Of a stretch of DNA of 64,000 bases, positions 39,221 through 56,400 are shown in pieces. Below the pieces are notes generated by a model. It did not search any database. It was not told the origin of the DNA and was given only the letters and a program-made list of their open reading frames with translations. The DNA is from Gemmatimonadales bacterium (GTDB taxonomy: Bacteria > Gemmatimonadota > Gemmatimonadetes > Gemmatimonadales > GWC2-71-9): assembly GCA_038321865.1 (NCBI GenBank), contig JBBQFH010000002.1:1-64000 (forward strand), given 5' to 3'. Every line of letters begins with the position of its first letter. Position 1 is the stretch's first letter. The position numbers and the translations under genes were made by a program.

Positions 39221-40243
39221 CTACGGTACCCGACCCGGGTCAAGTTCCGGCGGCGCCTCATCTTCGCTCGGAATCACCCACCCCTCATCCAGCGCGGCAC
39301 GGCGGGGCCCGTCCGCCCGGCGGCGGATTCCGCCGAGCGCCAGCACCAGCGTCGCAATGACGCTCCAGACGCCGCCGGCGGCGATCCAGGTCGCCAGCCC
39401 ATACCGGCGCCGCACCGTTCCCATCCAGTCGCGAGCGAACTGTCCCACGTTGAGGCCCGTCGTCTGCCGCAGGGCGTCCTCAAACGGAACACCAGCTTCC
39501 AGGCGGGCCATCAGCGGGTCCAGCTTGCGGGTGGGATTGAGCTCGGCCAGCCGGGCCACCGCGGCCATGGAGAGCGCGTAGGCCGGACCGGCGGCGCCCT
39601 CATTCCCCCGCAGCTCGCCATCGAGGTCGTCCAGCTCGGGGACGCCGCCACGCGCGACCGACAAGTTGAGCGACAGTGCCGCGAGGCGATCCCATTCGCC
39701 GGCCGCCCACGCGGCGTAGCCTTCGTCGAACCAGCGCGGCACGCGCACCCGCACCGCGCCATGCAGTACAAGGTGAGCGAGCTCATGCCGCAGGGTTCGT
39801 TCGAGATCTCCCACATCGGCACGAAGCAGGATGGTGTGGGCCCCGGGCATCGCGATGCCGGCGCCCCACGTGGGCGCGCGTCCCCCGGTCATTTGCCGGT
39901 ATCGGGCCGCATCAGGGACCAGGATGAGCCGCATCGGCCCCGCCGAGCGGCGACCCAGACCGGGCCAGTATGCGGCCTGGTCCGCCGCTTCGGCCAGCGA
40001 CGCAGCCATGCCGAGCTGCGGGGGCCACGCGACCGCCACCACGTCGCCGACTCGCACCACGCGCGGAGGCGTCTGAGCAAACAGCAGGACGAATGCTACG
40101 AAAACCGAGTACGCGGGATCTCTCCACCCGAAGCCGCCAGGGCGACGAGCTCGCCGCAGCGCCTGGCCCAGGGGTTGAACTTGTTGGCCTTCTGCCCGTC
40201 GGTCCACGTCTGAACGGCGCCAGCCCGATCGCCGGCGAGCCAC
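39221..40243 (-). CDS. Peptidase MA-clan (gluzincin-like) membrane-anchored metalloprotease; start codon uncertain
   Basis: HELAH (HExxH), VPRWFDEGYA, C-terminal TM. The signal-like SVFVAFVLLFAQ near 40110 has no adjacent ATG/GTG. Confidence 0.75.
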   Translation of the reverse strand: MARRRSGWRRSDVDRRAEGQQVQPLGQALRRARRPGGFGWRDPAYSVFVAFVLLFAQTPPRVVRVGDVVAVAWPPQLGMAASLAEAADQAAYWPGLGRRSAGPMRLILVPDAARYRQMTGGRAPTWGAGIAMPGAHTILLRADVGDLERTLRHELAHLVLHGAVRVRVPRWFDEGYAAWAAGEWDRLAALSLNLSVARGGVPELDDLDGELRGNEGAAGPAYALSMAAVARLAELNPTRKLDPLMARLEAGVPFEDALRQTTGLNVGQFARDWMGTVRRRYGLATWIAAGGVWSVIATLVLALGGIRRRADGPRRAALDEGWVIPSEDEAPPELDPGRVP

Positions 40244-40974
40244 TGCGCCCCACCCAGCTGCAGGTACGCCTCGATCAGGTTGGGGCCGAGCCGAAGCGTC
40301 TTCCGGAAAAAGCTCTGCGCATCGTCGTACATGTCGCGCTCGAGGTACACCAGCCCAAGATAATAATGTGCGTAGAGGGTGGCCTTGCGGTCGTTGTCGA
40401 GCCGGATGGCCTTGGAGAGGTGCTCGATCGCTTCGCCGAAGATTCGCTTCTTCAGGCAGATGTAGCCGACGTTGATTCGGGCCAGGGCGTTTGCGGGCTC
40501 ATTCATCAGCACCTTGGAAAAGGTGCCCAGCGCATCGTCGTACTCCTCATGCAGCATCTGCGCCCACCCGAGCAGCGACAGCGCTTCCACCGCGCCGGGC
40601 GACAGCTCCAGCGCCCGCGAGAGCACCTGTATCGCGCCGGCATGGTCGCCGAGAGAAATGAGGCTCCAGCCCTTCTCGATGAAGGTCGACGCTCCGATAT
40701 GATCATCGTGCACCACCGGCCGGGCATCCGTAAATGCGGGAGCCTGCGCAGTCGCGGCTGACGCCGAGACCTGCTTGTAGCGGTCCACCAGCAGACGGAT
40801 GTCTTCCTTGAGCTGCGTAACCTCCGCCAGCGCCGTATCGACTTTCTTGAAGAACGCGATGATCTCCCGCTTGGCCGCGTCGCGCCCCGATGCGTCGGCC
40901 GCGGCATCGAGCCGCGATGCGATCGTCGCGTATTCGCTCCTGAGCGGTGCCGTCAGCGACTCGTCTGCCGTCAT
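40096..40974 (-). CDS. Coiled-coil plus TPR protein at the end of the che/mgl operon
   Basis: ATG 40974 in ATGA overlap with cheW, N-terminal coiled coil, about 5 TPRs (e.g. AHYYLGLVYLERDMYDDA). Confidence 0.85.
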   Translation of the reverse strand: MTADESLTAPLRSEYATIASRLDAAADASGRDAAKREIIAFFKKVDTALAEVTQLKEDIRLLVDRYKQVSASAATAQAPAFTDARPVVHDDHIGASTFIEKGWSLISLGDHAGAIQVLSRALELSPGAVEALSLLGWAQMLHEEYDDALGTFSKVLMNEPANALARINVGYICLKKRIFGEAIEHLSKAIRLDNDRKATLYAHYYLGLVYLERDMYDDAQSFFRKTLRLGPNLIEAYLQLGGAQWLAGDRAGAVQTWTDGQKANKFNPWARRCGELVALAASGGEIPRTRFS

Positions 40975-41435
40975 GTCACTACTGCCGCTTCGAGGGCCTG
41001 CCGCTCCGTCGAGCTGAGGAGCCGGAGCGCGTTCAGCAGAACCACGGCCCGATCCCCTTCCGTGAGGATCCCGGCGATGTACGTCGCGGCCAGGCCGCGG
41101 ACCATGGGAGGCGGCGCGGTGATCGTGGTGCTGTCCACCCGCATCACCTCGCGGACCTGGTCGACCAGCATGCCGATGCGCTGCCCGTCGAGATTGAGGA
41201 CCATGAGGCGGGTTTCCTCCGTTACTCCGGCCTCCAGCTCGAGCCGCTTCCGGAGATCCACCACCGGAATCGCCGTTCCGGCGTAGCGAACGACGCCCTC
41301 GAGAAACGCCGGTGCCTTGGGCAGCGCCGACGGCTTCTCGTAGCGCAGGATGCGCTCCACCTGGGAAATATCGAGCGCGAACTCCTGCGAGCCCACGCGG
41401 AACGTGACCACCTGCATGTCGTCGCCAGTGTTCAT
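40971..41435 (-). CDS. cheW: Chemotaxis coupling protein CheW (copy 3)
   Basis: VVTFRVGSQEFALDI, FLEGVVRY.G.AIPVVDLR, IGMLVDQV. Confidence 0.92.
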   Translation of the reverse strand: MNTGDDMQVVTFRVGSQEFALDISQVERILRYEKPSALPKAPAFLEGVVRYAGTAIPVVDLRKRLELEAGVTEETRLMVLNLDGQRIGMLVDQVREVMRVDSTTITAPPPMVRGLAATYIAGILTEGDRAVVLLNALRLLSSTERQALEAAVVT

Positions 41436-41860
41436 GTGTCGATTCCCCTTTCCGCGAGCCGCGCACCAAGCGCAGTGAGATCAAGCAGGGGCACCAGTCC
41501 GTCCGCGCGCCGGACGACCGCGCGCGCCCAGGGAAGGGCGGAGCTCGGCGGGAGCGGCAGCGTCGCCTCCCGCACGACCACGTCCGCCTCCTCGACCTCG
41601 AGACAGAGCCGGATACCGCCAACCGAGATGACCACCGCGACCTCACTCACCCGGGGTGGGTACGCCTCGCCGGCCAGCAGGGCGCCGAGGTGAAGCACCG
41701 GCATCATTTCTCCCCGCACGTTCGCCACGCCGCGGAGCGCGGCCTCCGTGCTCGGAACCGGGTGCGCCGGGCCAGCGTCCGCGACCGCGACGACCTGCTC
41801 CACCGGAAGGCCGACCAGGCGACCTCCGGCGCGCACGAGCAGGAAGGACGCCTCGCTCAT
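41432..41860 (-). CDS. cheW: CheW-domain protein (copy 2, divergent)
   Basis: [33 protein letters not shown]. Confidence 0.85.
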
Positions 41861-42939
41861 CGTGACGCCAGCGCGGCAAGCGCCACCTGTATCTGCGCCG
41901 CCATGTCGCGGATCGACGCCACACGGTCGGCTCCGCCGGCCTGGGCCGCAGCGTTGGGCATGCCGTATACGGTGGAGCTTTCACGATCCTGCGCCAGCCC
42001 GAATCCGCCGGCATCGTGGATTGCCTTCAGTCCGTCGGCCCCGTCACGCCCGAGACCGGTAAGCACCACCCCGATCGCACCGGGGCCGAACGCAACGGCT
42101 ACCGAGCGGAACAGGGGGTCGGCCGCGGGTCGGACCCCCCAGAGCGTGGGGCCACGATCGAGCACGAGGCACAGACCGCCGTCCACCGCCGGCATGACCT
42201 GCATGTGAAAATCACCTGGTGCCACGTACGCGGTGTCCGCCAGCAGCGGCGTCCGATCCTCGGCCTCCACCACCGCGAGGCGACTCTGCGAGGCCAGCCG
42301 CTCGGCGAGGCTTCGTGTGAACTTCGGCGGCATGTGCTGGACGATCACGACCGCCGCGCCGCTGCCGAGCTGGAGGCGCGGAACCACTTCGGCGAGTGCG
42401 CGCGGGCCGCCGGTGGATGCGGCGATCGCCACGCAGAACCGCGCGCGTCCCGGCAAGGCGAACAACCGCTCGGGCGGCGCGTCGCTCCGCCCCGGGCGGG
42501 CCAGCACCGGCAGTCGGTGAATGTTGGCTTCGCTCGCGCCTCGAAGCGCCGCGAGGACCCGCTCGCCGAGGCGATGCGAGGCCTCTGCGCCGCGATCATC
42601 CTCCTTGGCGACCAGGTCCACGGCACCAAGCTCCAGTGCCCGAATGGCCCCGGCGGTCCCGGGTCCCGCGTAGGCACTGACCACGACGATGGGGCGCGGC
42701 GACTCCGACATGATGTAGCCGATCGCGCCCAGCCCGTCGAGCTCAGGCATCTCCAGGTCCATCAGCACGAGGTCGGGCGCAAGGCGATGCACCTTCTGGA
42801 GCGCGTCCATCCCGTTCCGCGCCGTGCCGGCGAGCGCGAACTCCGCAGACCCGGTGACGGCATCGCCGAGGACGTGGCGGAAGAAAGGACTGTCGTCCAC
42901 CACGAGGACGGTGCGGCGCTCAGAGTGACTGGATCCCAT
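41857..42939 (-). CDS. cheB: Chemotaxis methylesterase/deamidase CheB (REC + CheB)
   Basis: VLVVDDS, MDLEMP receiver. Catalytic ASTGGP, VQHMP and LTGLGRDG are intact. Start ATG 42939. Confidence 0.95.
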
Positions 42940-43402
42940 GCGCCACCGAAGACACCTCGAGCCGGCCGTCCGCGACGTACAGCCGCACCGTCCGGCCGTA
43001 GTCGCCGCCGACTGACTCGCCCACCAGCGGAATGCCGTTGACATTGAGGACGTGCCGCGTCGCTACGACGTTGCGTTCTCCCATCTGGATGGCGCCATGG
43101 GGAGCGAGGTTCGCGAACATGCTGGCGCCTCCAGCGATGCGGGCGACGGTCCGCTTCGGATTGGCCCCGCCTTCGACCATGAGCGCCAGGAGCCGGGGCA
43201 CGGCCAGCTGGGGAAACTTGGCCGGATTATCCGCGTTCCGGCTGAGCGCCGGCGAGGGCAGAAGTATGTGAGCCAGGCCGCCGATCCGCGCGCTCGCATC
43301 ATGCAACGCGATCGCGACACAGCTGCCCAGCCCGACCGTGACGAGGACGTCGCCGGCGGTCCCGACATTCAGATCAGCGACCCGTACGATGATGTCGGTC
43401 AC
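42920..43402 (-). CDS. cheD: Chemoreceptor glutamine deamidase CheD
   Basis: [34 protein letters not shown]. Confidence 0.95.
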
Positions 43403-44220
43403 GCCGCGCGCCGATAAATGCGTTCCCGGGCATCCACCAGGTGGAGCCGATCCCGGGCCGGGCCGAGCAGCGTCTCGACCTTGCCCAGGACGAGGACACC
43501 GCCCGGAGAGAGCCGTGAAGCGAACGTGAGGAAAAGCCGCTCCTGCATCGGGCGATCGAAGTAGATCACAACATTCCGGCAGAGAATGAGGTCATAGGCC
43601 GGGCGAAGCGGCGGGTCGGCCCCGAGATCCAGGCGGCTGACCGTGACGCGGCGGATTAGCTCAGGCACCACACGATATCCTTCGGTTTCCGGCACGAGAT
43701 AACGCGCGGCCAGGTCGGCCGGGAGCTCGGTAATGGCGTCCGGGCGGTAGCGCGCGCTGACGGCGCGCTCCAGACTGGCGCGATCCACGTCGGTGGCGTC
43801 AATCTCCAGCCGGTCCAGCCGCTCGGCGTGCCCCGCGGCACGATCGGCCTCCGCGACGAGCATCGCCACCGTGTAGGCCTCTTCACCCGAAGCGCAGCCG
43901 GCGCTCCACGCTGCGATACGACCCTCGCGTGCGGCGACCAGCTCAGGCACGATCGAGCCGCGGAGCAGGTCCCAGGTTTCGCGGTTGCGGTAGAATCGAG
44001 TCACGTTGATGGTGAGCGCGTCACGCAGCCGCTCGCACTCCGGCGGCACGCGTTGGAGTACCGCGAGGTAATCCGTGTATGTGTGTACTCCGCAGGCGCG
44101 CATGCGCACGGCGATCCGCCGACGCAAACATTTGTCCTTGTAGACGTCGGGCGTGAGCCCGGCCGCGTCGGTGATCCGCCGCGAGAGGGCGGCGGTCAGC
44201 GCGTCGTCGGCGGCCGTCAC
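43399..44220 (-). CDS. cheR: Chemotaxis methyltransferase CheR
   Basis: YKDKCLRRRI, INVTRFYRN, WSAGCASGEEAYT, ATDVD, ILCRNVVIYF. Confidence 0.95.
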   Translation of the reverse strand: MTAADDALTAALSRRITDAAGLTPDVYKDKCLRRRIAVRMRACGVHTYTDYLAVLQRVPPECERLRDALTINVTRFYRNRETWDLLRGSIVPELVAAREGRIAAWSAGCASGEEAYTVAMLVAEADRAAGHAERLDRLEIDATDVDRASLERAVSARYRPDAITELPADLAARYLVPETEGYRVVPELIRRVTVSRLDLGADPPLRPAYDLILCRNVVIYFDRPMQERLFLTFASRLSPGGVLVLGKVETLLGPARDRLHLVDARERIYRRAA

Positions 44221-45836
44221 GATTGCCGATCCAGCATGTCGAGATTGGCCCGCGCGAGCTGATGCCCTGGGTTCAGCTCGGTCGCGCGCTGCCAGCTCGT
44301 CCGGGCCCGGGCGGGGTCCCGCCGCTTGAACGCGATGTTGCCCATCTTGAAATACAGGTCATCGCCGAGATCCGGCGCGAGACGCGCCGCGCGCTCGTAG
44401 GCCTCGAACGCCTCATCGTAGCGCCCGCCCCGGTACAGCAGGTCGGCGAGATTCTTCGAGGTCTGCGGCAGCGATGCGTCTTCGGCCAGCGCGGAGCGCA
44501 GCATGATCTCCGCCGCGGCCACGTCACCGCCGAGCTCCAGCAGCACGCCGAGATTGTTCCGCAACACGGGCTCGGCCACGTGGGCCTCGACGCCGGCGCG
44601 CGCCAGGGCAACGGCCGAGTCCGCATCATCGCAACCCGCGGCGGCGAGCGTGGCGGCCCAGAACCACAGCGGCGGGGGCGTCCGGTCGCCATGCAGTTCG
44701 CGGGCGCGGGTCAACCGTGCCTGGGCGGTCTGAAAGTCACCGCGCTTGAGCGCCACCACGCTCCAGCCGGTCTGGATCCGGGCATCGTCGCGCGCGCGCC
44801 CGGCGGCTTCGCCGTACGCGGCTTCGGCCTCGTCAAGCCGCCCAAGCTGCTCGAGCGCGAACGCCAGGTTATGCAGCGCTGCCGGACGCGGGCCGCCGCG
44901 CTCGACCGCCTGCCGCAATGCATCCGCCGCCGCCTGCCACCGCGCCTGGCGAAGCGCGATGAGCCCCAGAAAGAACGGTGCCGTTCCCTCGGACGGCCGC
45001 AGATCGGCCACGCGCCGGAACTCCCGCAGCGCCTCGTCCAGCATGCCGGTCTTGTAGAACGCGATCCCGAGATTTCGATGCTCCTCGATCCTGCTGTCAT
45101 TCATCTTGGGCACCGCGGCCGCCGCCGATGAGCCGGCACGGTGGGCGAACCCTGCCGCAATCAGCCCGTAGAGCGCCTTGCCGACCTCGAACTCCACCAG
45201 CCCGGAATCTTCGACGACCTGCTGCACGTCGCGGGTTCCGTCCAGCAGCGGAAGCAGCCGCTGCTGGACGGCCGAGAGACTGACGCCGGCGGATTCCATG
45301 TGCGTCCGGTCAAGCGAAAAAATCAGGTCAAAGGAAGGAATCTTTTTGGCGATCAGGCTCCACTCGTCCACCCGGCGCGCGCCTTCGAGGAGCAGCGACT
45401 CGGCGTTGATCTGGACCAGGAAGTCTTCCCGTTCCGGCCGAACGCCCGCCTCGAAATTGAACGTCCCGCTCGACCAGGTGAACAGGTAGTACACGGCCTC
45501 CTCGATCTGGAGTCGCATGTACTCCTCGAGTGCCGCCCGTGGCAGCGCTCCCGACTCCACGAGCAGTTCTCCGAGCTTCCGCTCGCGGTCGACGCTCTGC
45601 GCCTGGACCGCCTCCTCGAGCTGTGCCGCGCTGATGCGGCCGCTCTTGACCAGGATATCTCCCAGCCGGTCACGCCGATTCACGATGGAGGCGTAGGAAA
45701 TACGCCCGGCATCGAAGTAGACGTAGCCGAAGTTCTGCCGGTCAGCCACGGCGAGGCAGCCGGTTCGGCGCCCCAATGTCAGCAGCTGAATGACATCCGG
45801 AAGGCTGGCCTCCTTGAGACTGCCCTTGATCGCCAT
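44217..45836 (-). CDS. DUF4388 (PATAN-like) protein with inserted MshEN-like motif and C-terminal TPRs
   Basis: KGSLKEASLPDVIQLL..RRTGCL, FTWSSGTFNF, LLLEGARRVDEW, tandem RLG motif, TPRs (EHRNLGIAFYKTGM). Confidence 0.85.
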   Translation of the reverse strand: MAIKGSLKEASLPDVIQLLTLGRRTGCLAVADRQNFGYVYFDAGRISYASIVNRRDRLGDILVKSGRISAAQLEEAVQAQSVDRERKLGELLVESGALPRAALEEYMRLQIEEAVYYLFTWSSGTFNFEAGVRPEREDFLVQINAESLLLEGARRVDEWSLIAKKIPSFDLIFSLDRTHMESAGVSLSAVQQRLLPLLDGTRDVQQVVEDSGLVEFEVGKALYGLIAAGFAHRAGSSAAAAVPKMNDSRIEEHRNLGIAFYKTGMLDEALREFRRVADLRPSEGTAPFFLGLIALRQARWQAAADALRQAVERGGPRPAALHNLAFALEQLGRLDEAEAAYGEAAGRARDDARIQTGWSVVALKRGDFQTAQARLTRARELHGDRTPPPLWFWAATLAAAGCDDADSAVALARAGVEAHVAEPVLRNNLGVLLELGGDVAAAEIMLRSALAEDASLPQTSKNLADLLYRGGRYDEAFEAYERAARLAPDLGDDLYFKMGNIAFKRRDPARARTSWQRATELNPGHQLARANLDMLDRQS

Positions 45837-47827
45837 CAGCGCCACTCCTCGATCAGGCGGGCGGCGACGTCGGGCCAGTCCCAGACCATCTTTTCCCGGC
45901 TGCGAATGCCGCCGGCCGTCGGTGCGAGCACGCCGCTGGACCGGGAGCCCGTCCGCCTGGGCGCGCGGATGACGGGGCCTTCGAGTACTTCACGTGCGAG
46001 CGCGGCTGTCGGGTGGGCCTGCTGCGCTTCGGCCGCGTTCAGCACCCGCTGGACCAGGCCGAGCGCGCTGCGCATCGAGTCGGCCGGCCGGGCGGCGATG
46101 TACGCGGCGAGCTCGGGATCCACACCATCGAGCCGCGCCCCCAGCAGCCGCTCGATGGCTCGCTGGCGCAGCTCCCGATCGGGTGCGGGGAGGTCCACCA
46201 CCAGACCACCCTCGAGCCTGGTCAGCAGCCGCGGCTCGACCCCGGTCAACTCCGCCAGCGGGAGCGCGCACGAGAAGACCATCTGCCTGCCCTGCTCCAG
46301 CAGGTGGTTGAACAGGAGGAACAGCTCGTCCTGGCTCCGGTCCTTGCCGGCGATGAGGTGGACATCATCAAGGAGGAGCGCATCCACCTTCCGGTACCGG
46401 GCGCGCCAGAGCGGAACGGCATTGCGATCGATCGCGGAGATCAGCTCCTCGATGAACTCGCTGGTGCCGAGGCAAGCCACGGTGCCTGCCGGTGCCAGCG
46501 CATTCCCGAGGCCATGCAGCAGATGTGTCTTGCCATTACCGCTCGCACCCACGATGACGAGCGGATTGTACTTCGCACCAGGCTCAGCGGCGACGGCCGT
46601 GGCGGCGCGTACGGCCATCCGGTTGGATCCGCTCTCCAGGACGTCGCCAAGCCTCCAGTGCGGCGACGGTCCCGGGGGGGCCGCCGCACCGGCCTGCGCC
46701 CGCTCCAGCAGCCCCGCCGCCGCCGCCACATCATCCGGATCCTGCAGCAGCGCCGACCCAGCGAGCTCGGGCGCGATGCTCGCGAGCTCGTCGGCGATCG
46801 AGCGAAGGCGGTTGACATCGGCCTCGAACGCTCTCAATGCTGCGTCGGGATCCGCGAGTGCGTCGTCGTTGAGCAGCGCGGCCAGCCGCGCGACGCGATA
46901 GCCCTCCCCTTCCCATCGCACCATGGCCTCGCCCACCCGCGAGCGCCACGACTCGACCTGGTGGGTGACCGTCGCGGACACCTCGAGCAGGAAATCGGCG
47001 AACTCGTCCCGCTCCTCCGGCGCCTCCGCTGGCGCGGGCTCCCTCTGCTCCGGCGACGGGTGCGGTGCTTCCGGCAGGGCGTTGGCCAGGCGAACGGCAT
47101 CGGGCGCGTCACGACCGCCCACGAGGAGGCGCGCCTGGCCGGCGTCGAGGAGATCAGGGCTGATCGCCTGGTAGGCGATGAGGCGGTTCAGCGCTCCGAT
47201 GAGCTCCCGGACGTTGTCGATGTCCACCGAGGCGACGGCTTCGAGCACGCCGGCGCCGAAGGCCGCACCGCGTGCTTCCGCCCGGCGCCGGAGAATGGCG
47301 ACCCGCGTCTCATAGTCGGGTGCCGAAATGTCGATCACGAGGCCGCCCGCAAAACGGCGAATCAGCCGTTCGTCGAGCGCCTCGATTTCCGACGGTGGAC
47401 GATCGCTGGTGAGCACGATCTGACGGCCCCCGCGCTGCAGCGTATCCACCAGTCGGAGCAGTTCCGCCTGCATCTCGCGTCGCTGACTCAGAAATTGCAC
47501 ATCGTCGAGCAGCAACAGCTGGGTGTCCGCGAATCGGTGGCGATACGCATCGCCCTGGCCGCCGGCCACGGCGGCATTGACCGCCTCGACCAGCTCGTCG
47601 AGCGTCAGGTATTCCACCGCCAGGCGGGGATCGATCGCGCGAGCGGCGTGACCGATCGCCATGAGCAGATGGGTCTTCCCCAGCCCCGGCCCTGCGTAGA
47701 TGAACAGCGGGTTGTAGCCGCTGCCCGGGGCCTCGGCCACGGCATGTGCCGCCGTCGCCGCCAGGCGATTCGAGGCGCCCACGACGAGTGTCTCGAAGCG
47801 GAATTGCTCCGGCAGCGCTCTGGTCAC
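45836..47827 (-). CDS. Tandem double DnaA-type AAA+ ATPase (DnaA/Hda family) lacking DnaA domains I and IV
   Basis: Two copies of SNR.A..AA.AVA..PG..YNPL.I. with Walker A (AGPGLGKT / GASGNGKT), Walker B (LLLLDDVQ / LLLDDVH) and Arg-finger box ([10 protein letters not shown] / [10 protein letters not shown]). GTG 47827 overlaps the mglA stop. Confidence 0.88.
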
Positions 47828-48426
47828 TCGGCGACACCCCCGACGGCGAGCTTCCGAAGCACCAGCTCGGAGATCCCCTTCAGCGTCTCGAAGACGCCGC
47901 TTCCGTGCAGTGCATCGGCCGTGAAGCACTGTACGCCGCGAAAATTGAGGGCGTCGTCAAGCTCTTCCCGATTCAGCACCAGATCCGCCGGAAGGTCCTG
48001 CTTGTTGTACTGAAAGACGACCGGGAGCTGCCGCACGTCGACGCCCTGATCAAGAAGGTTCTCCTGCAGATTCTGCAGGCTCTCCAGGTTGTCCTCGAAC
48101 CGCCTCGCCTGACTGTCGGCCACGAACACCACGCCATCCGCGCCCTGCAGCACCAGCTTTCGGGTCGCGTTGTAGTAGCTCTGCCCTGGCACGGTATAAA
48201 GCTGAAAGCGCGTCGCGAACCCGGAAATCGAGCCGAGATCGATCGGCAGAAAGTCGAAGAACAGCGTGCGGTCGCCGTGGGTGGCCAGTGATACCATGCG
48301 CCCGCGCCGGGTCTCGGGAACGCGGCCGAAGATGTACTGCAGGTTAGTCGTCTTGCCCGACCGTCCCGGCCCGTAATAGACGATCTTGCAGGTGATTTCA
48401 CGCGCCGTGAAATTCACGAGAGACAT
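47824..48426 (-). CDS. mglA: MglA-family small Ras-like GTPase
   Basis: [24 protein letters not shown] (intrinsic Arg), [24 protein letters not shown]. Confidence 0.95.
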
Positions 48427-48429
48427 GGG

Positions 48430-48891
48430 TTACCGTCCGAAGAGCGCGCGAAGGCTCGCATTGAGGTCGTGCTCGAAGTTTTCTGCCAGGACCGGGCCAT
48501 GCGGCTCCGCCGGAGGTGCCGCCGCACCGATTTCCTCGGCAAACTGCTGGAAGAAGAGCTGGACGAGCCCGACCGAGGTGTCCGGGCCGAACACGACCAG
48601 GCCGATCCAGCGGCCGCGGGGCGTATCGAATCCGCTCAGCAGCATCCCCTGCTCCGCACCCTGGTGGACCAGCACGCCGAACCGTGGCGATCCCATGATG
48701 CGCGCCAGCTCCGCCGTCGACGCCATGATCGCGGCCCCGAGCGCGGCGGCGGACATGACATCGACCGAACGGGTGAAGCCGTGCTGGGCCACGACCTGTC
48801 CGGAAGTCGTCATGAGCAGGACAAGTCGGGCCGCCGATTCGTCGAGAAATCGCTCCAGTGGAGCGCCGACCCAACTTTCCAGCACTCGCAT
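48430..48891 (-). CDS. mglB: MglB-like Roadblock/LC7 protein (putative GAP of MglA)
   Basis: Directly upstream of mglA; AALGAA..ASTAELARI.G..F..L.HQG, VVFGPDTSVGLV pattern and a C-terminal helix. Confidence 0.8.
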   Translation of the reverse strand: MRVLESWVGAPLERFLDESAARLVLLMTTSGQVVAQHGFTRSVDVMSAAALGAAIMASTAELARIMGSPRFGVLVHQGAEQGMLLSGFDTPRGRWIGLVVFGPDTSVGLVQLFFQQFAEEIGAAAPPAEPHGPVLAENFEHDLNASLRALFGR

Positions 48892-49238
48892 CAGCCGAGC
48901 ACCCGGGCCGCTTCGAGCAGCTCCAGACGGGCCAGGCCCACGTTCGCCCCGCGGTCGGCGACCGCGACCACGAGCATGTCGTTGGGCGCAGGCACGGCCA
49001 GCAGCACTCCCTCCTCCCCGCGCAGATGCACCACACCGGGAACACCAAGGCCTGCGCTCGTGGTAGCGCGGCGGAGCCGGGCGCACAGGCTGGCGGCGAG
49101 CGCGGCAACCGCACGCCCATCCACATCCTCCATGGACACGTCGGCCACCACCAGGCCGTCGGAGGCGGATACCAGCATGACCCCGCGAATCCCCCGGACC
49201 GCGCTCACCCGGCGAAGCGCCTGCTCGTGCTGGCTCAT
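48891..49238 (-). CDS. Roadblock/LC7 domain protein
   Basis: GIRGVMLVSASDGLVV, AVAALAASL, LVVAVADRGANVGLARLEL. Confidence 0.88.
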   Translation of the reverse strand: MSQHEQALRRVSAVRGIRGVMLVSASDGLVVADVSMEDVDGRAVAALAASLCARLRRATTSAGLGVPGVVHLRGEEGVLLAVPAPNDMLVVAVADRGANVGLARLELLEAARVLG

Positions 49239-50104
49239 GAGAGTCCCTCGAGCCATCGGCGAGCGGCCTGTGCCGCGCGGTCTGCCAGCAAAGCCAGCCG
49301 GCCGGCCGGCACCCCGATGTCGCGCACAGTGAGCAGCACCGTCTCCGGAGTGGGCGCCACCAGGTGCATGTTGCCGTCAGGACACTCCACCGACACGCTC
49401 TGCCAGGCGCCGAGGCCGAGCAGTCGTCCGGCGCGGGCGGCCTCGCGGGACACACCGGCAAGATGGGCCGCGACAGTGTCGGCGACATCGGTGCCATCGC
49501 CATCCCGCAGGCCGCCGCCGAGCCGCAGGCCATGCTGATCGAGCAGCAGGAGCCCATCGCGCGCGCCTTCGAGTCCGGCAAAGAGCTCGGCATCATCGGG
49601 CAGCGACGAATCGACGTCCAGCGAGAAGGGCATCGGGGGCGATGCAGTCGCCACGCTGTCCTCCGCGCGCGGCTGCGTCTGCGGCGGGACCGGTTCCGGA
49701 GCGGTCGAGGCGGCGCGCATGCGCAGGATCGCGGCGGCGAGGCCGGCATCAGCCGCCGCACCCGCGGCGGCGGCTTCGAGGTGCCGAAGCGCACGGGGCG
49801 CGTCGCCGGCCCGATAGTAGAGAAAGCCGAGGCCCTTGTGCGCACTGCGATCAGCCGGGTCGAGGCGCAGCGCCGTCATCCAGCCGTCGAACGCCGCATC
49901 GCCATGGCCGGCATCGGCCAGGATCCGCGCGTGCAGCGAATGCGCCTCCGCCATGTCCGGGTATCGTGCCAGCCCGTTCGCCGCGACCGTCAATGCCGGC
50001 CCCAGCTGGCCGCGTTGCCGCAACAACTCGGCCAGGTCGAGAAAGGCGAGACTCGACCCGTCGGCGGCGAGCTGTGCGGTCAGCGTCCGGACGTCGTCAC
50101 TCAT
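49235..50104 (-). CDS. TPR + C-terminal Roadblock/LC7 fusion protein
   Basis: N-terminal TPRs (AFLDLAELLRQRG, AHKGLGFLYYRAGD), Pro-rich linker, then LLLDQHGL..VAAHLAGVSREA..VPAGRLALL. Confidence 0.8.
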   Translation of the reverse strand: MSDDVRTLTAQLAADGSSLAFLDLAELLRQRGQLGPALTVAANGLARYPDMAEAHSLHARILADAGHGDAAFDGWMTALRLDPADRSAHKGLGFLYYRAGDAPRALRHLEAAAAGAAADAGLAAAILRMRAASTAPEPVPPQTQPRAEDSVATASPPMPFSLDVDSSLPDDAELFAGLEGARDGLLLLDQHGLRLGGGLRDGDGTDVADTVAAHLAGVSREAARAGRLLGLGAWQSVSVECPDGNMHLVAPTPETVLLTVRDIGVPAGRLALLADRAAQAARRWLEGLS

Positions 50105-51245
50105 GCGCCGTCCGGGTTCCTTCCACAAGCGTCATCGCCGCGGCACGGAGGCGGCTCACCGACCCACCCAATGCATCCTCGGCCGGTGGTCTCGCATCCA
50201 GGCGGCTCCACGCATCCCAGGACTCCACGGCCTGCTCCAGCTGGCCGGCCCTCGCCTGGCACACGCCGAGCATCCTTCGCGCGGGAGCCAGCATCGGATC
50301 GATCCGCAGGGACTCCTGAAATGCATCCCCCGCTTCACCGTGCCGCCCGGAGGCGAGCAGGGCGCGTCCAAGCGTGACATGAGCCTCCGCATGGTCGGGC
50401 CGCGCCGCGACGACGTCGAGTGCGGCCACGCGAGCCGCCTCCGGATCTCCGGCGGCGAGCGCCGTCCGGGCGCGGAGCAGCAGCTCGTTCAGCTCGGCCC
50501 CGATCGGCGCGGGCGCCAGGGCGCGGCGTGGGTCATCCAGGACGATGACCCCGGCGGCGGCGAGGCCGAAGAGCGTCCGCGCGATTTCGAAATCCGAGCG
50601 CCCGACCGCAGCCGCGACGCCGTGTACATCGCGGGTGCCGTCGACGGCGCCAAGCACTTGCCATTCCGCCGGCAACAGATCAAGCCGTGTGGTGCCGCCG
50701 GCATCCGGCGGCACCAGCTCCGGCACCATCCCCAGATGCGGAATCCGGCTCTCGATGCGCGCCCACTCGTCGATCCGCCGCGCAGCCTCCATCAGCAGCG
50801 CCTCGGTGGGGATGCGCACCTGGCCGGGCCCGGAAGGCGCCGGCGGCGTTTCCGAGAAGGAGAAGTAGCCTTCGGACCAGCTCATGAGCTCGAAGATTAC
50901 CTCCTCGACCTGCGCCCGTGCCTGACGTTCCAGCTCCCGGCGGCCGACCGCACCCATGGCGAGCAGGATGTCGCCGAGGCGCCGGCCGTCGCCCCCCTCC
51001 TGCATCGCCAGGGCCCTCGCAAAATCCTCCTCGCTCAGCTTGCCGCTTCGCAACAACAGCGTCCCCAGCGGATGCGGATTGGTGCGGATCTCGGCCGCGA
51101 CCACCCCGCCCTGCTCGAACTGCACGGTTCCGGCGTTCTGCCTGAGGTCCGACGTGATCCGCAGCGTGCCGGTCTTCCGCGCCAGATCGAGCAGCTGGAA
51201 GACATCGTGAATCGACAGCTCCTTGAGCGGGCCTTCGATCGGCAT
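50097..51245 (-). CDS. DUF4388 (PATAN-like) protein with MshEN-like insert and C-terminal TPRs
   Basis: EGPLKELSIHDVFQLL..RKTGTL, MSWSEGYFSF, LLMEAARRIDEW. Confidence 0.85.
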   Translation of the reverse strand: MPIEGPLKELSIHDVFQLLDLARKTGTLRITSDLRQNAGTVQFEQGGVVAAEIRTNPHPLGTLLLRSGKLSEEDFARALAMQEGGDGRRLGDILLAMGAVGRRELERQARAQVEEVIFELMSWSEGYFSFSETPPAPSGPGQVRIPTEALLMEAARRIDEWARIESRIPHLGMVPELVPPDAGGTTRLDLLPAEWQVLGAVDGTRDVHGVAAAVGRSDFEIARTLFGLAAAGVIVLDDPRRALAPAPIGAELNELLLRARTALAAGDPEAARVAALDVVAARPDHAEAHVTLGRALLASGRHGEAGDAFQESLRIDPMLAPARRMLGVCQARAGQLEQAVESWDAWSRLDARPPAEDALGGSVSRLRAAAMTLVEGTRTAHE

Positions 51246-51247
51246 GG

Positions 51248-53917
51248 CTAGCCCGCCGTCGTGGCGAAGATGTGCTGCAGGTCGCGCGCGGATCGCGCGC
51301 GGGCGCGGGCCTGCGCGGCGAGATCTCCGGCGGGTTCGAGCTGCACCACTCGGTCCCAGGCCGTGACCGCGTCAGCGAAATGGCGTTCCCGTGCAAGGGC
51401 GACGCCCCGATGGAAGAGCGCGGCAGCGTCATTCGGGTCGAACCGGAGTACCCGGTCGAACGCCTCGAGTGCGCAGCTCGTCCGGCCGTCCTCGAGCAGG
51501 ATCCGCCCGAGGAGCGTCAGGGCCGCCAATTCGTAGGGGTCCACCGAAAGTGTCCGCACCAGGACGTCGATGCCCGCGCTCGCGGATTCGGTCCGGGCGA
51601 GGAGGTCCGCCAGCGCCATGGCGGCATCGGTGAAGGTCGGGAGCAGCTGGAGCGCCCGCTCGTACGCTGCGCGCGCGGCCGCCCAGTTGGCCCGTGCCTC
51701 TTCCAGGCCGCCGAGCTCGTACCAGACCTGCACCAGCGAACCGTCGAGTTGCAGCGCCACCTGGCAGGCCTCGAGCGCAGCGTCGATGTCGCCGAGTTGG
51801 CCGGCGATCACCGCCTGGAGCTGGTACAGATCGGGCCGGCCGGGCGCCGCGCGCTGGGCCGCGCGCACTGCGGCCATGGCGGCGGCCGCGTCGCCGGTCG
51901 CGTGGAGCACGCGCGCATGGGCCAGCAGCACGTCCGCATCACCGGGTGCGCGCCGAGCAAGCGCTCCCGCGACTTCGACCGCCTCGCTCGCACGGCCAAG
52001 CGCCACCAGACTGCGTATCTCGCCCAAGGCGGGTCCCAGCTCGCCCGGCGCAGCCGCGCGCGCTTCGGCAAAGCGCTCGAGGGCTTCGCCATGCAGGCCC
52101 CGCCGGGCGAAGATGGCGCCCCAGAGCGCTGCCGCATGTGCCGGTGTCACGCCCCGGCCACGCAAGCGCTCAAGCTCGGCGGCGGCAAGCTCCAGCAGCC
52201 CCTTGGCCACGTAGTCGCGCGCCAGCGCCAGCGGGTCGGGTTCGTGCGGTTCGACCACGTCCGCCCGTGCCGGCGCCAGCTCGTCGAACAGCCGATCGAG
52301 CGCCGTCGGATCGAAGGCGAACTCGCCGGCGAGCGTCGAACCGCTGAGCTCCGCCTTCAGTGCCGGTGCCACGGCGATGGTCGGATCCTCGAACTGAAGG
52401 TCGATTGCCAGCACGTATTTCTGGGGCACGTAGTACGGCTCCAGCTCGAGCGCCTGTTTAGTGGCCCTCAGCGCCGCATCGAAGTCGCCCAGCTGGCTCA
52501 ACGTAAAGCTCAGGTTGTAGTGCGCCGCCGCCAGCGTGGGGTCCGCTTCCACCGCGCGGCCAAAGGCGTTCCTTGCATCGGAAAACCGCTTGAGCTCCAT
52601 CAGCACGAGCCCCACTCCATTCCACGCGATGGCGCTGCCGGGAACCTCCGCGAGTACACGCCGATACCCCTCCAGCGCCTGCTGGATCTCCTGCCGCTGG
52701 AAATGCAGCAGCGCCAGGTTGAGGCGGGCGGTGAGCGGCGGCCGCGTGCCCTGCGTTGCACGGCGGAAGGCCTCAAGGGCGGCGGCGTCCGCCGGATTCT
52801 GGGCCCGGAGGACGCCCAGATTGTTCCAGGCCAGCGCGTAGGCCGGGTCGAGATCGACCGAGCGCGCGTACGACGCCGCGGCCTGGTCCAGCCGGCCGAC
52901 CTGATGCAGGCAGACGCCGCGTTCGTTCCAGAGCTTCGGCGAATCACCAAACTGCTGCACCAGCGTCTCGTAGAGCTCGAGCGCCGCGGCGAGGTCATGC
53001 CGCAGCAGCTGGACCTCGGCCATCGCCTGCAAGGCGTGTCGCCGATCGTCACCGGCATCCAGCGCCAGCCGGTACTCACGCAACGCCTCGGCGTAGTAGC
53101 CCTTCTGCCGGAACGCCAGGCCGAGCGCGAAGTGCGCCAGGGCGCCGTGTCTCACGACCTTCGGCCCCTCCGCGGCGGGCTGCCGCGCCGGCTCCGGCTG
53201 ACCGAGAGCGAGGTTGGCCTGGGCGCGGGCGAGCAGCGGGTTCAGCTCGATGGCGCGCCTGGCGGAGCTTCGGGCCGCTTCCTGGTCACCGATGTCGCCG
53301 TACACGAAGGCAAGCAGGTAATGCGCGTCGGCGTATTCCGGATTGCGGGCAATTGCGGCCTGAAGCGCCGTGCGCGCAGGCTCGTTGAGGCCGCGATTGT
53401 AGAGCGCTTCGCCATAGGCGAAGAGGGCGACGGGGCTCTCGGGATCGCGTTGGCACGCCTGACGAAACCATTCGACCGCCGCGTCGATGTTGCCGCGCGC
53501 CTTCTCCGCGAGCCCGATCTGCACCAGCGCCGCCGCATCGCCCGGCTCCGCCGCCAGCAGCGCCTCGAACTCGTGCACGGCCTCGTCGTGGTGCCCCAGC
53601 GCGGCGTAGGCACGGCCCAGCTCCCAGCGCGCGTCGCGGTCGCGCGGAGAGCTCCGGAGCCGCTCCCGCAGCTCTGCCACGCGGCGGTCGTAGTGCCCGT
53701 TCTCCCGGTAGGCGAGCTCCAGGTTGGTCTGGGCCACCTGCATCTTCGGATCGAGCTCGAGCGCGCGCGCGAAACCAGCCACGGCCTCTGCGATGAGGCC
53801 CTTCTGGTAGTAGAGCACGCCGAGATTGTTGTGCGCGCCGGCGTCGGACGGATCGATCCGGGTGGCGAACGACCGGAGCGCGGCGAGATCGCGCTCGGAA
53901 AGCACGGGGGCCGGCAT
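51248..53917 (-). CDS. Large cytoplasmic TPR-repeat protein (889 aa)
   Basis: Many canonical TPRs (AHNNLGVLYYQKG, AWNNLGVL, AWNGVGLVLMEL) and no signal peptide. Start ATG 53917. Confidence 0.88.
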   Translation of the reverse strand: MPAPVLSERDLAALRSFATRIDPSDAGAHNNLGVLYYQKGLIAEAVAGFARALELDPKMQVAQTNLELAYRENGHYDRRVAELRERLRSSPRDRDARWELGRAYAALGHHDEAVHEFEALLAAEPGDAAALVQIGLAEKARGNIDAAVEWFRQACQRDPESPVALFAYGEALYNRGLNEPARTALQAAIARNPEYADAHYLLAFVYGDIGDQEAARSSARRAIELNPLLARAQANLALGQPEPARQPAAEGPKVVRHGALAHFALGLAFRQKGYYAEALREYRLALDAGDDRRHALQAMAEVQLLRHDLAAALELYETLVQQFGDSPKLWNERGVCLHQVGRLDQAAASYARSVDLDPAYALAWNNLGVLRAQNPADAAALEAFRRATQGTRPPLTARLNLALLHFQRQEIQQALEGYRRVLAEVPGSAIAWNGVGLVLMELKRFSDARNAFGRAVEADPTLAAAHYNLSFTLSQLGDFDAALRATKQALELEPYYVPQKYVLAIDLQFEDPTIAVAPALKAELSGSTLAGEFAFDPTALDRLFDELAPARADVVEPHEPDPLALARDYVAKGLLELAAAELERLRGRGVTPAHAAALWGAIFARRGLHGEALERFAEARAAAPGELGPALGEIRSLVALGRASEAVEVAGALARRAPGDADVLLAHARVLHATGDAAAAMAAVRAAQRAAPGRPDLYQLQAVIAGQLGDIDAALEACQVALQLDGSLVQVWYELGGLEEARANWAAARAAYERALQLLPTFTDAAMALADLLARTESASAGIDVLVRTLSVDPYELAALTLLGRILLEDGRTSCALEAFDRVLRFDPNDAAALFHRGVALARERHFADAVTAWDRVVQLEPAGDLAAQARARARSARDLQHIFATTAG

Positions 53918-53921
53918 GGCC

Positions 53922-54542
53922 TTACGGCAGGCGGATCGCGTCGAAAATGGCGCGCAGCGATGGCATGTCTGGCAGCAGCAGGAAATGTCCTTCGAGCTGT
54001 TCACTGGCGCCGCCGACGTGGAAGGCCGTCTCCACGCAGAAGACGAAGTCGCGCTCGTGGCCGAAGTTCAGGTACGTCGTGGTGAGAATCGCCGCCGACT
54101 GGTCAATGACGAGACTCGGCACCGACGGAACCAGCATCATTCCCATGAAGTCGCTGAGCGCGTTCATGTACGCGCTGACCAGAATGTTGCCGACCTCCTT
54201 CAGGCCCGACTGTTCCATTTCGCCGAAGGCGGTCGTCGTGCCGCGGGCGCGCCCCAGCAGCATGTCACAGACTGCGAGCGCTGACTCTTCGGGAAACAGC
54301 ACGAGCGTGCGCCCGGTCAGGTCGCCCATCATCTGCATCAGCACCGCGGCGATCACCGCATCCGGCGGGCCCAGGAGATCGGTGACCTCCTCGAGCGGCC
54401 GGACATTGATCTCGGGCACGCTGATCATGATCTTCTGATTGGTCATCTGCGACAGCGCGGTCGCCGCGTGGCCCGCCCCGATATTGGCGACCTCGCGCAG
54501 CGCGTCCAGCTGCAGCTCCTTCAATCCGCGGGCGTCGTCCAT
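53922..54542 (-). CDS. cheC: CheC-family CheY-P phosphatase
   Basis: Two active-site motifs, DALREVANIG and SGLKEVGNIL. SD GAGGAG before ATG 54542. Confidence 0.93.
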   Translation of the reverse strand: MDDARGLKELQLDALREVANIGAGHAATALSQMTNQKIMISVPEINVRPLEEVTDLLGPPDAVIAAVLMQMMGDLTGRTLVLFPEESALAVCDMLLGRARGTTTAFGEMEQSGLKEVGNILVSAYMNALSDFMGMMLVPSVPSLVIDQSAAILTTTYLNFGHERDFVFCVETAFHVGGASEQLEGHFLLLPDMPSLRAIFDAIRLP

Positions 54543-54555
54543 TCGCTCCTCGCTC

Positions 54556-56400
54556 CTACAACAGTGCGGCCGCGTCCAGAATGAGCGCGGGCGACCCGTC
54601 CGCCAGAATCGTCGCCCCGCCGAAGAATGACGGCATGCCAAGCGGCGCGTCGAACGGTTCCACCACGATGTCCTGCTGGCCAAGCAGCGCGTCGACCACC
54701 AGCGCCGCCCGGCGATCACCAACCTCGAGGATCACGGTGGGACGCCGAACTGGGGGCGGTCCCCCGCGCAGCGCGACCAGGTCACGAAGATGCACAGTCG
54801 GGATGGCCTGATCGCGCACCACCAGCGCCTCCCGGTCGCGTACCGCGGTGACGGCACGGCCGTCGAACTCCACCGTCTCCGCCACGTAGGCGAGCGGAAT
54901 GGCATAGCGTTCGGCGCCCACGGACGTCAGCAGCGCCCGGACAATGGCGAGCGTAAGCGGGACACGCACCACAAACGTCGTACCCTGCCCCGCCACCGAC
55001 TCGATCGCCAGCGTGCCGCCCAGCGTCCGTACCCGGGTCGCCACGACATCCACGCCGACGCCGCGGCCGGACACGCCGCTCACCTGTGTGGCGGTGCTGA
55101 ACCCCGGCCGGGCGAGGGTCTTGAGCAGGCTGTCGTCTGTCAGCGCCTCGACCGCCGCGTCGAGAATCCCTTCCTGCCGGGCCTTCGCCAGAATGGCGGC
55201 CCGATCGATGCCTCGGCCGTCATCGGAGACCCGGATGGCCACGCTATTCCGTTCCCGCGCCGCCGACAGCAGGATCCGACCCTGCGGCGGCTTGCCGGCG
55301 GCCACCCTCGTCTCCGGCGTTTCCAGCCCGTGGTCCATCGCATTCCGGATGAGGTGCAGGAGCGGATCGCCGATTTCGTCGAGAATCGCACGGTCGAGCT
55401 CGATCCCTTCGCCCTCGATTTCGAACCGCACCTGCTTCCCCAGGTCGCGGGACAGATCCCGCACCAGTCGCGGAAACCGGTCGAACACTTCTCCGACCGG
55501 CGTCATCCGGGCCTGAATGACCTCCACCTGCAGATCGGTGACCAGCCGGGCGATCCGCTCCGTGACGGTCTCCAGCTCCGGCGCCGCGCCAGTCCGCACC
55601 AGATCGACGAGGCGGTTCCGCGCCACGACCAGCTCACCGACCTGCTTCATCATGGTGTCGAGCCGGCGCAGGTCGACGCGGATCTGCCGGCCGCGCACAG
55701 TCGGCTCGGTACGCTCCGGCGCGATCTCGTCGAAGGTGATGCCGTCCACGTCACCGGCGGAGCGGATCGCGACCCTGACGTCCTCGTCCGATGCGGCGGA
55801 CTCGAGCCGGAAACTGAACTTCCCGTCGAAGTCTTCCCGTTCGAACGCTGCGGCCGCCGGCCGGAGCGCAGTCACCGTGCCCAGCTGCTCGGCCCGACGG
55901 AGCGCCAGCATCGCCCGGCCCCCTCGCATCTGCGCGCCGGCGCGGATCGCCACGCTCACCGCCCGCCCCGACGGCTGAATGAGGTGCACCGCAAATTCGG
56001 CTGTCTGCGCACTGACGAGGCCGCCGGCCGCGGCACGGTCGAGCGCGGTGATGAGGTCACCGTCCGCCGTATTCGCCGGTTGACCCGCGGCGGCTCGCTC
56101 GACGCCCCCTGCGATCTCGTCGACGGCGCCGAACAGCAGCTGGAACAGCTCCGGGGCGGCCGCGACCCGACCGGTCCGCAACGCGTCGAGCAGGTTCTCC
56201 GCGCTGTGGGCGACGCGGGCCACGCCCTCGTACCCCATGGTCGCCGCCATGCCCTTGATCGTGTGGATGGCCCGGAAGAGGCCGTCCACCGGCTCCGGAG
56301 CCGCCGGGTCACGCTCCCACTCGAGCAGACACTGATTGCACGCGGCGAGGTGCTCCCGGCTCTCAGCCAGGAAGAGCGCGGCGTACTTGGCAAGATCCAT
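54556..56400 (-). CDS. cheA: Chemotaxis histidine kinase CheA (P1-P2-P3-P4-P5)
   Basis: FRAIHTIKG (Hpt His), IRVDLRRLD, HLIRNAMDHG, DDGRGID, PGFSTA, SGRGVG, C-terminal CheW domain. Confidence 0.96.
   Translation of the reverse strand: MDLAKYAALFLAESREHLAACNQCLLEWERDPAAPEPVDGLFRAIHTIKGMAATMGYEGVARVAHSAENLLDALRTGRVAAAPELFQLLFGAVDEIAGGVERAAAGQPANTADGDLITALDRAAAGGLVSAQTAEFAVHLIQPSGRAVSVAIRAGAQMRGGRAMLALRRAEQLGTVTALRPAAAAFEREDFDGKFSFRLESAASDEDVRVAIRSAGDVDGITFDEIAPERTEPTVRGRQIRVDLRRLDTMMKQVGELVVARNRLVDLVRTGAAPELETVTERIARLVTDLQVEVIQARMTPVGEVFDRFPRLVRDLSRDLGKQVRFEIEGEGIELDRAILDEIGDPLLHLIRNAMDHGLETPETRVAAGKPPQGRILLSAARERNSVAIRVSDDGRGIDRAAILAKARQEGILDAAVEALTDDSLLKTLARPGFSTATQVSGVSGRGVGVDVVATRVRTLGGTLAIESVAGQGTTFVVRVPLTLAIVRALLTSVGAERYAIPLAYVAETVEFDGRAVTAVRDREALVVRDQAIPTVHLRDLVALRGGPPPVRRPTVILEVGDRRAALVVDALLGQQDIVVEPFDAPLGMPSFFGGATILADGSPALILDAAALL

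Follow-up and report, generated by a model that had tools for sequence, protein, structure and literature searches.

A DnaA-type double ATPase in a chemosensory–MglA operon of Gemmatimonadota is likely an optional switch on a signaling adaptor

Introduction

To our knowledge, ATPases of the DnaA clade (DnaA, Hda, DnaC and IstB) are known almost only from DNA transactions. Domain III of DnaA, the AAA+ module, builds ATP-dependent head-to-tail oligomers, and tetratricopeptide repeat (TPR) domains commonly bind acidic C-terminal peptides. On the signaling side, group 1 mglA genes, which occur in Gemmatimonadetes and elsewhere, sometimes adjoin PATAN genes according to the sections of PMC4316618 available to us, and PATAN domains (DUF4388) bind PilB1/PilC in Synechocystis in the accessible part of 10.1101/2021.06.11.447907. 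Here we describe a gene on the first 64,000 nucleotides (the window) of contig JBBQFH010000002.1 of a Gemmatimonadales genome (GCA_038321865.1; G000 in our survey), which encodes a protein of 663 amino acids (aa) with two DnaA domain III modules and lies between mglA and a gene for a PATAN–TPR protein, hereafter the partner. Because relatives lose both DnaA cores and yet keep a C-terminal tail beside the TPR gene, these cores are likely an optional switch on a signaling adaptor rather than a replication initiator.

Architecture of the double-DnaA protein

The gene reads through as 663 stop-free codons from a GTG start, and its guanine-plus-cytosine content by codon position (0.78/0.49/0.83) is of the coding type, which fits a real gene. 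The elements discussed below are, in window coordinates:

45836..47827, minus strand: double DnaA-AAA+ protein gene (P0001), 663 aa
47108..47812, minus strand: module 1, DnaA domain III, aa ~6-240; Walker A/B, sensor I, arginine finger and sensor II intact; Foldseek match to 8bv3 at a root mean square deviation (rmsd) of 1.6 Å
46946..47008, minus strand: motif A, aa 274-294, EFxxFLxEVxxxVxxxVExW; opens the first middle-domain helix; kept in the mini-proteins described below
46673..47005, minus strand: helical middle domain, aa 275-385; without a match in Pfam or the PDB; homologue of a repeat in large proteins
45974..46660, minus strand: module 2, DnaA domain III, aa ~390-618; Walker A/B, arginine finger and oligomer/single-stranded DNA (ssDNA) face retained; sensor I lost
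45839..45898, minus strand: C-terminal tail, aa 644-663, EKxVWxWP...R.IEE.R; sole element retained across all family forms examined
44217..45836, minus strand: downstream partner, DUF4388/PATAN with an MshEN-type cyclic di-GMP (c-di-GMP) motif, then TPR repeats; its start overlaps the double-DnaA stop by 1 nucleotide (nt)

The initial annotation of this DNA, made from the letters alone, had proposed two domain III modules without domains I and IV, and the motifs that it named are all in the translation (SNRLA and SNRMA for SNR.A, YNPL twice, an AGPGLGKT Walker A, two Walker B motifs, arginine-finger boxes and a Trp-bearing tail). Pfam matched Bac_DnaA in two stretches (E = 1.5e-87), with no match to Bac_DnaA_C (PF08299) or DnaA_N (PF11638) at E ≤ 0.01; module 1 begins as early as residue 6, and the domain IV motif DH[ST][ST]V occurred in 0 of 51 family members. 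An AlphaFold model built on 51 sequences (mean predicted local distance difference test [pLDDT], 88.5; predicted template-modeling score [pTM], 0.52) contained two AAA+ modules and a confident helical middle domain at residues 275-381; neither this folded domain nor the absence of sensor I from module 2 had been annotated initially. Confidence was low at residues 243-272 and 627-649 (pLDDT <50 in the latter), and as the second of these stretches is followed only by a single terminal helix (654-662), the model has no domain IV fold; together with the Pfam and motif results, this led us to reject a hidden domain IV. The best Foldseek matches of the model were DnaA domain III structures (rmsd 1.4-1.9 Å). 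A pTM of 0.52 implies that the domains, including both modules, are not fixed relative to each other in the model; with single-module forms also common, the suggestion of a pre-fused dimer was not borne out.

The 120 best database matches were 600-697 aa long at 92-100% query coverage, with PF08299 listed for none, and the taxon names given for the best relatives were Gemmatimonadales or Gemmatimonadota, except for one labeled Bacillota. A fusion artefact, against which the initial annotation had cautioned, was rejected on the strength of these full-length relatives. A canonical 458-aa DnaA (DnaA_N, Bac_DnaA and Bac_DnaA_C) is encoded on contig C6 of the same genome, so that the double-DnaA gene is not its sole dnaA. 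Lacking domains I and IV and not being the genome's initiator, the protein is not a DnaA but, as had been surmised, a repurposed paralogue. The 663-aa family is real, conserved and uncharacterized: a DnaA/Hda AAA+ relative in a signaling role.

ATPase modules are lost while the tail and its partner persist

The survey covered 301 genomes of the phylum in families f1-f12, four of them unpublished (G055, G095, G155 and G180); no claim depends singly on any of these four. In seven f2 genomes from four genera, both ATPase modules are gone and their slot is taken by a frame of 60-78 aa (not all starts are certain) that comprises motif A, as a single helix, and the tail; examples lie at L160:8778-8987 and L161:8744-8926. 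This mini-gene abuts or overlaps the partner start in 6/7 genomes. Two mini-genes differ at seven codons, with seven synonymous and no non-synonymous changes, and the mini-protein is under purifying selection. In the partner tree, six mini-protein genomes cluster with a support of 99, apart from the seventh; all are nested among ATPase-bearing relatives, so these forms are deletions, in one or two events (a single origin was not rejected in an approximately unbiased test, p-AU = 0.50). The MshEN segment of the partner is cleanly deleted in six of the seven genomes, and this loss may have been one event. A co-polymerizing regulator of DnaA, one of the roles offered in the initial annotation, is weakened as the core function by these seven genomes, which keep the locus with both modules deleted. 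In one mini-protein locus (G112, L160:8988-9092), a 15-nt unit is repeated about five times in the interval that separates mini-gene and partner.

Scanning 133 loci (L032-L164) recovered the tail in a reading frame at 109; of the 133, 15 are canonical dnaA loci, and a few divergent tails scored below the cut. A DUF4388b-like partner starts between -11 and +105 nt from the tail frame in 103 of the 109 (1-nt overlap in 77), and the other six run off the locus end before the partner. Every locus long enough has a TPR-bearing downstream gene, either PATAN-MshEN-TPR or the TPR part alone. The readable f11 and f12 partners (4/4; L158 and L128 not included) are TPR-only, matching partner positions 243 onward, and keep the family-specific first-repeat signature GxAF[YFL][KR]TxM. 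The core common to all forms is thus the tail together with the TPR region of the partner, which covers about residues 245-350 of the protein encoded at 44217-45836.

The paralogue was counted at a best E <1e-60, given that canonical DnaA by itself scores between E 1e-45 and ~5e-60, and the partner at E ≤ 1e-20. Paralogue and partner, respectively, were present in 122/125 and 123/125 genomes of f1, 53/70 and 67/70 of f2, 3/3 and 3/3 of f3, 5/6 and 5/6 of f4, 1/1 and 1/1 of f5, 0/23 and 0/23 of f6, and 8/48 and 12/48 of f7. At these thresholds the paralogue was absent from f8-f12, and the partner was found in 4/4 genomes of f8, 0/3 of f9, 0/11 of f10, 0/3 of f11 and 3/3 of f12. The paralogue threshold misses divergent forms, which were found by hand in f7 (G219), f8 (2/2 examined), f11 (3/3) and f12 (3/3). 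The distribution of the partner follows that of the paralogue, related genomes not being independent counts. Single-module forms occur in f2, f5, f8, f11 and f12.

The middle domain and tail also occur with other N-termini. Among the best 150 of 435 matches to a middle-domain profile, 34 were of the form module-middle-module-tail and 14 module-middle-tail. In P0426, the part that precedes middle domain and tail is a TPR domain sharing 47% identity with the TPR-Roadblock protein of the operon, and in P0419 it is an Fe-hydrogenase-like domain; each is a single sequence without context. The middle-domain fold had no match at E ≤ 0.001 in a Foldseek search of the PDB and none in the ESM Atlas. It is related to a repeat in proteins of the P0242-P0244 type (HHalign 96.6%, E = 6.6e-10), and the same repeat occurs in a Thermoplasmata protein named as a DUF835 protein and in a Wallbacteria protein. 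Apparent fusions to DUF4388 (P0289 and P0367) were judged to be frameshift read-throughs, the sequence between or after the parts being out of frame, and true fusion to DUF4388 was seen in 0/24 longer matches, which is weak evidence. Read by eye, a protein on contig C21 of the studied genome (G000:C21, L173:781-2535, minus strand) has ferredoxin-like cysteines, an Fe-hydrogenase-like region and a GGDEF-like C-terminus; the domain that P0419 joins to middle and tail is a relative of the N-terminal region of this protein.

Residue conservation and origin of the two modules

Conservation was counted over 57 tandem proteins, with Bacillus subtilis numbering transferred through an ungapped alignment to 8btg_A; aligned positions are designated sensor I, sensor II or arginine finger accordingly. 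Two loci whose reading frame shifts in the flexible linker that follows module 1 (L112:7362-9943 and L114:6851-8991) and a third, L082, with a fragment pattern of such a shift within or beyond module 1, were excluded from the counts; each may be a sequencing error or a real split. Module 1 keeps its nucleotide site (K157 57/57, D214/D215 57/57, D248 55/57, R264 54/57, R313 57/57), and its ssDNA-contact positions are altered: I190 has mostly become H and T225 mostly M, K222 is replaced by R or Q, and R206 is changed as well. Module 2 retains the Walker A lysine (54/57), Walker B (54 and 53/57) and the arginine finger (R264, 56/57), with sensor I (D248) in 11/57 only, sensor II in 47/57 and the lid missing in 8. 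The DnaA face of module 2 is largely retained: of 57 proteins, I190 is I in 48 and V in 6, I193 is kept in 43, R202 in 56, R206 in 53, K222 in 39 (R in a further 6), T225 in 35 (S in 14), Q226 in 56 and E228 in 57; N187 and E183 are not conserved. In B. subtilis DnaA, the parts of PMC10721633 available to us list K222, R202, E228, N187, E183, I190 and I193 as contacting ssDNA. The residue pattern of module 2 is the main evidence for a possible link to DNA or DnaA, and it is equally compatible with a conserved oligomer interface. Single-module forms (n = 9) are more degenerate, with the sensor II arginine in 4/9.

Sequence identity is 32% between the two modules; against the DnaA of their own genome it is 42% for module 1 and 34% for module 2. 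In quick trees, module 1 with the single forms, module 2, and Gemmatimonadota DnaA formed separate groups. One tree placed the two modules together (support 80) and two others left the grouping unresolved; a topology joining module 2 to repeat-type DnaA modules was not rejected (p-AU = 0.11). Origin of module 2 by duplication is weakly favored.

Genomic neighborhood

The gene order in the window is rluA-cheW-cheY-cheA-cheC-TPR-DUF4388-TPR/Roadblock-mglB-mglB-mglA-double-DnaA gene-DUF4388/TPR-cheR-cheD-cheB-cheW-cheW-TPR-peptidase MA. Besides the genes given above, it comprises:

47824..48426, minus strand: mglA small GTPase; its stop overlaps the double-DnaA start by 4 nt
48430..50122, minus strand: two Roadblock/LC7 (MglB-like) genes and a TPR-Roadblock gene
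50097..53941, minus strand: second DUF4388-MshEN-TPR gene and a long TPR gene
53922..57266, minus strand: cheC, cheA, cheY and cheW (chemosensory cluster, upstream half)
40096..44220, minus strand: cheR, cheD, cheB, two cheW and a TPR gene (downstream half)

Across 80 loci this order is kept as far as the contigs reach, with mglA upstream in 73/80 and the partner downstream in 77/80, the rest ending at a contig edge; in more distant loci both flank the gene in 16/16. Further out, mglA was absent directly upstream at 6/12 distant loci, 5/5 further loci and 1/5 mini-protein loci. Loci without an adjacent mglA are L132-L134, L137, L128, L129, L155-L159, L161 and L166, the search for mglA having been confined to the neighborhood of the gene. 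In four f7 genomes the locus is reduced to rluA-gene-partner-peptidase MA, without che or mgl alongside, and in two of these minimal-locus genomes, each a single contig (G247 and G222), no chemoreceptor was matched. The f11 and f12 pairs lie near or downstream of dapF, with no PATAN domain and no adjacent mglA. MglA, the partner proposed initially, is probably not the key one, because mglA is missing upstream in several lineages whereas a TPR-bearing gene follows wherever the locus is long enough.

Several features of the neighborhood are worth recording. The stretch 40096-57266 (minus strand) encodes a complete chemosensory core (cheA, cheY, three cheW, cheC, cheD, cheR and cheB). An MshEN-type motif lies in tandem within the PATAN domain of both DUF4388 proteins (44217-45836 and 50097-51245); the MshE-related c-di-GMP model scored 44.6 and 36.1 against a cut-off of 38, so that one passes and one comes close. 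No chemoreceptor was found among the 22 open reading frames (ORFs) scanned around the locus, and three lie elsewhere in the genome. Flagellin was not found in G000 (89.85% complete) or in G222, and was present in 3/5 genomes checked. As had been noted initially, no dnaN is close by (none among the 22 ORFs of 35.9-58.2 kb). Matches to the E. coli-type DnaA box, for which we assumed a consensus, numbered 0 in 34-60 kb, a weak test given 11 in the whole genome. Between 35926 and 40105 the cluster continues into a peptidase MA gene, tRNA-Val (38867-38941), a TPR gene, tRNA-Asp (36918-36992) and rsmH/mraW, and the order of the protein genes is conserved in most long loci. In one f12 genome (G006, L128:187-3883), a response regulator-GGDEF gene, a cheR-TPR gene and two cheW lie ~3 kb downstream of the single-module/TPR pair, an arrangement not seen at the matching locus of G015.

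Proposed function and alternatives

We favor, at a probability of about 0.5, a reading in which the TPR repeats of the partner serve as docking site for the tail and the ATPase modules form an accessory nucleotide switch that feeds pilus or polarity signaling, not replication initiation. The most economical account would be a docking pair whose input domain can vary and is usually supplied by DnaA modules. The tail would bind the partner at its first TPR repeats, with the PATAN part or another protein of the operon as a possible target of motif A. ATP in module 1, in a site completed by the arginine finger of a neighboring module, would drive DnaA-like head-to-tail oligomers, with module 2 acting as a slower or non-catalytic structural protomer; these oligomers would cluster or expose the tails, and hence the partner. 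The partner would then integrate this input with c-di-GMP through MshEN and, where present, with MglA/MglB and Che proteins, and could act on type IV pili as cyanobacterial PATAN domains do.

Support comes from the invariant pairing of tail and TPR gene (a conserved extreme C-terminal motif persists together with its TPR partner), from the module losses, from purifying selection on the mini-protein and from the split of residues between modules; the fusions of middle domain and tail to other N-termini (P0426 and P0419) point the same way. Several points weigh against it. Binding of the tail to TPR repeats is predicted from sequence, and the pilus or polarity output is drawn by analogy; pilM, present in G000 and in 282/301 genomes, is near-universal, including in families lacking the gene (f6, 20/23; f10, 11/11), and does not discriminate carriers. 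Most of the 109 tail loci are close kin and not independent. The f11 and f12 pairs, without PATAN and adjacent mglA, indicate that the ancestral role may not be polarity. Finally, module 2 retains positions that contact ssDNA in B. subtilis (I190 as I or V in 54/57, R202 in 56/57, K222 in 39/57, E228 in 57/57), for which tail docking would account only as conservation of an oligomer interface.

It is this last observation that keeps replication in view. Module 2 might plug into ATP-DnaA filaments or ssDNA while the tail signals to the c-di-GMP-binding PATAN–TPR protein and the MglA/Che switch, a physical bridge between replication and polarity; were this true, it would count among several independent cases in which the DnaA motor has been domesticated for signaling, but we consider it doubtful, as the ATPase modules are dispensable in some lineages. 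Rather unlikely, too, is a sensor of replication state: with its retained DnaA face, module 2 would join filaments of ATP-DnaA or attach to ssDNA, and the TPR/PATAN partner and the polarity system would be informed of this state through the tail. I190, I193, R202, R206, K222, T225, Q226 and E228 are kept in most of the 57 proteins, as a sensor would predict, whereas N187 and E183 are not; the same surface forms the oligomer interface, the protein has no domain IV with which to reach oriC, several lineages lack module 2 or have a degenerate copy, and module 2 is only 34% identical to the genome's own DnaA. Five of these positions (K222, R202, E228, I190 and I193) touch the DnaA-trio strand in B. 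subtilis in the sections of PMC10721633 seen. The retained arginine finger in both modules would also suit an Hda-like or dominant-negative regulator which, directed by chemosensory or polarity signals, would cap DnaA oligomers or inactivate them, with its output on replication, and no separate Hda-like module was found in G000, where a domain III profile matched the double-DnaA gene and dnaA only. However, a clamp-binding motif was found in 0/51 family members, the Hda model TIGR03420 scored 155.4 against 194.8, the locus persists in seven genomes devoid of ATPase modules, and the gene was not found with the query used in f6 (0/23) or f10 (0/11), so that we give this regulator little credence.

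Two further alternatives start from the neighbors. A direct effector or regulator of MglA would explain why mglA is immediately upstream, with a 4-nt overlap, wherever the contig extends in the main set (73/80, the other seven at a contig edge) and in 16/16 more distant loci, and why it is kept in 4/5 mini-protein loci; against this, the gene persists at the loci without an adjacent mglA listed above, although mglA elsewhere in those genomes was outside the search, and we hold such a role to be improbable. Even harder to credit is a role of the tail–TPR pair in cell division or envelope growth, with the che and mgl genes as later additions. The cluster does run on into the peptidase MA gene, TPR gene and rsmH/mraW, the minimal f7 locus ends in peptidase MA in genomes where no chemoreceptor was found (G247 and G222), and the f11 and f12 copies lie downstream of dapF; but this neighborhood may be mere conserved gene order, and the main-class partner carries PATAN and MshEN signaling domains.

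The favored docking pair matters in several respects. The family is conserved over much of a major soil and aquatic phylum in a chemosensory-MglA-PATAN operon, and would show an initiator motor reused as a signaling switch. The natural deletion series reduces the system to a tail of ~20 residues and a TPR domain, so that the mechanism is testable with a peptide and one soluble domain. In addition, the naming of these genes as dnaA in public annotation can mislead origin and marker-gene work in Gemmatimonadota.

Comparison with known systems

No paper on the double-DnaA family was found in the literature outside subscription journals; table S2 of PMC4316618, on mglA neighborhoods, may list the locus. 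Public databases carry the family as "DnaA/Hda family protein" or dnaA, and JGI names many homologues dnaA. This is the mislabeling that had been anticipated, and it is to be expected since the 663-aa protein passes the NCBIfam DnaA equivalog TIGR00362 (420 versus a cut-off of 343.9). Like DnaA domain III (PF00308, TIGR00362; B. subtilis 8bv3/8btg), its modules have the AAA+ initiator-clade fold (rmsd 1.4-1.6 Å, 42% identity) with Walker A/B and arginine finger in both. Unlike DnaA, it has two modules, an extra helical domain and a tail, lacks domains I and IV, is not at oriC and coexists with a separate canonical dnaA, and its modules group outside DnaA sequences. Hda (TIGR03420) likewise is a DnaA-like AAA+ module without domain IV that retains the arginine finger, whereas the double-DnaA protein is doubled, sits in a signaling operon, falls below the Hda cut-off (HdaA models being far below theirs), has no β-clamp-binding motif by three patterns that we take to represent it, and is nearer DnaA than Hda. 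The IstB model NF038214 scored 95.7 against a cut-off of 200, DnaC and DnaI models were below cut-off, and the context is not that of IstB/DnaC-type genes (transposase, helicase), the neighbors being signaling genes.

Among polarity systems, Myxococcus MglA-MglB with the TPR effector SgmX and the Bdellovibrio MglA-TPR hub share MglA, Roadblock and TPR proteins and a chemosensory system with this locus, as far as the available sections of PMC7519303 and PMC3983030 describe them. They differ in that the available texts mention no DnaA-type ATPase ("DnaA" occurs 0 times in the accessible text of PMC11580455, for example), and in that the Gemmatimonadota parts lie in one operon. PatA-type PATAN regulators of type IV pili have the DUF4388 domain found at the N-terminus of the partner, which carries MshEN and TPR rather than a receiver domain and whose universally kept part is TPR, not PATAN.

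Parallels in architecture are found in other DnaA fusions without domain IV, which place the module in a large scaffold-like protein (repeat type, P0242-P0244; HEAT/DUF835, P0246; TPR, P0245 and P0247-P0265), the repeat type having the helical middle domain in common with the double-DnaA protein. Unlike it, they have a single module and no tail and are placed among canonical DnaAs or in a group of their own; they too are uncharacterized. Repeat-type proteins (P0242-P0244, P0282, P0316, P0321 and P0341; 1250-1420 aa) consist of about eight middle-domain-like repeats, then a very DnaA-like module without domain IV, and most end in C-terminal zinc ribbons. A PATAN-like N-terminus in these proteins was in register but not significant (scores of 16.0, with 4/30 shuffles higher, and 18.1, with 1/30 higher), and a metagenome scan for the genomic context of P0242 found nothing. 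P0246 joins HEAT repeats, a DnaA module, DUF835 and a zinc ribbon in a single protein. The TPR type (P0245 and P0247-P0265), ~20 proteins of mostly ~1360 aa, has a long TPR array and a C-terminal DnaA module without domain IV; seven modules tested form one group, a separate domestication of the DnaA module. With domain-IV-less DnaA modules present in such unrelated large proteins as well, reuse of the module looks recurrent.

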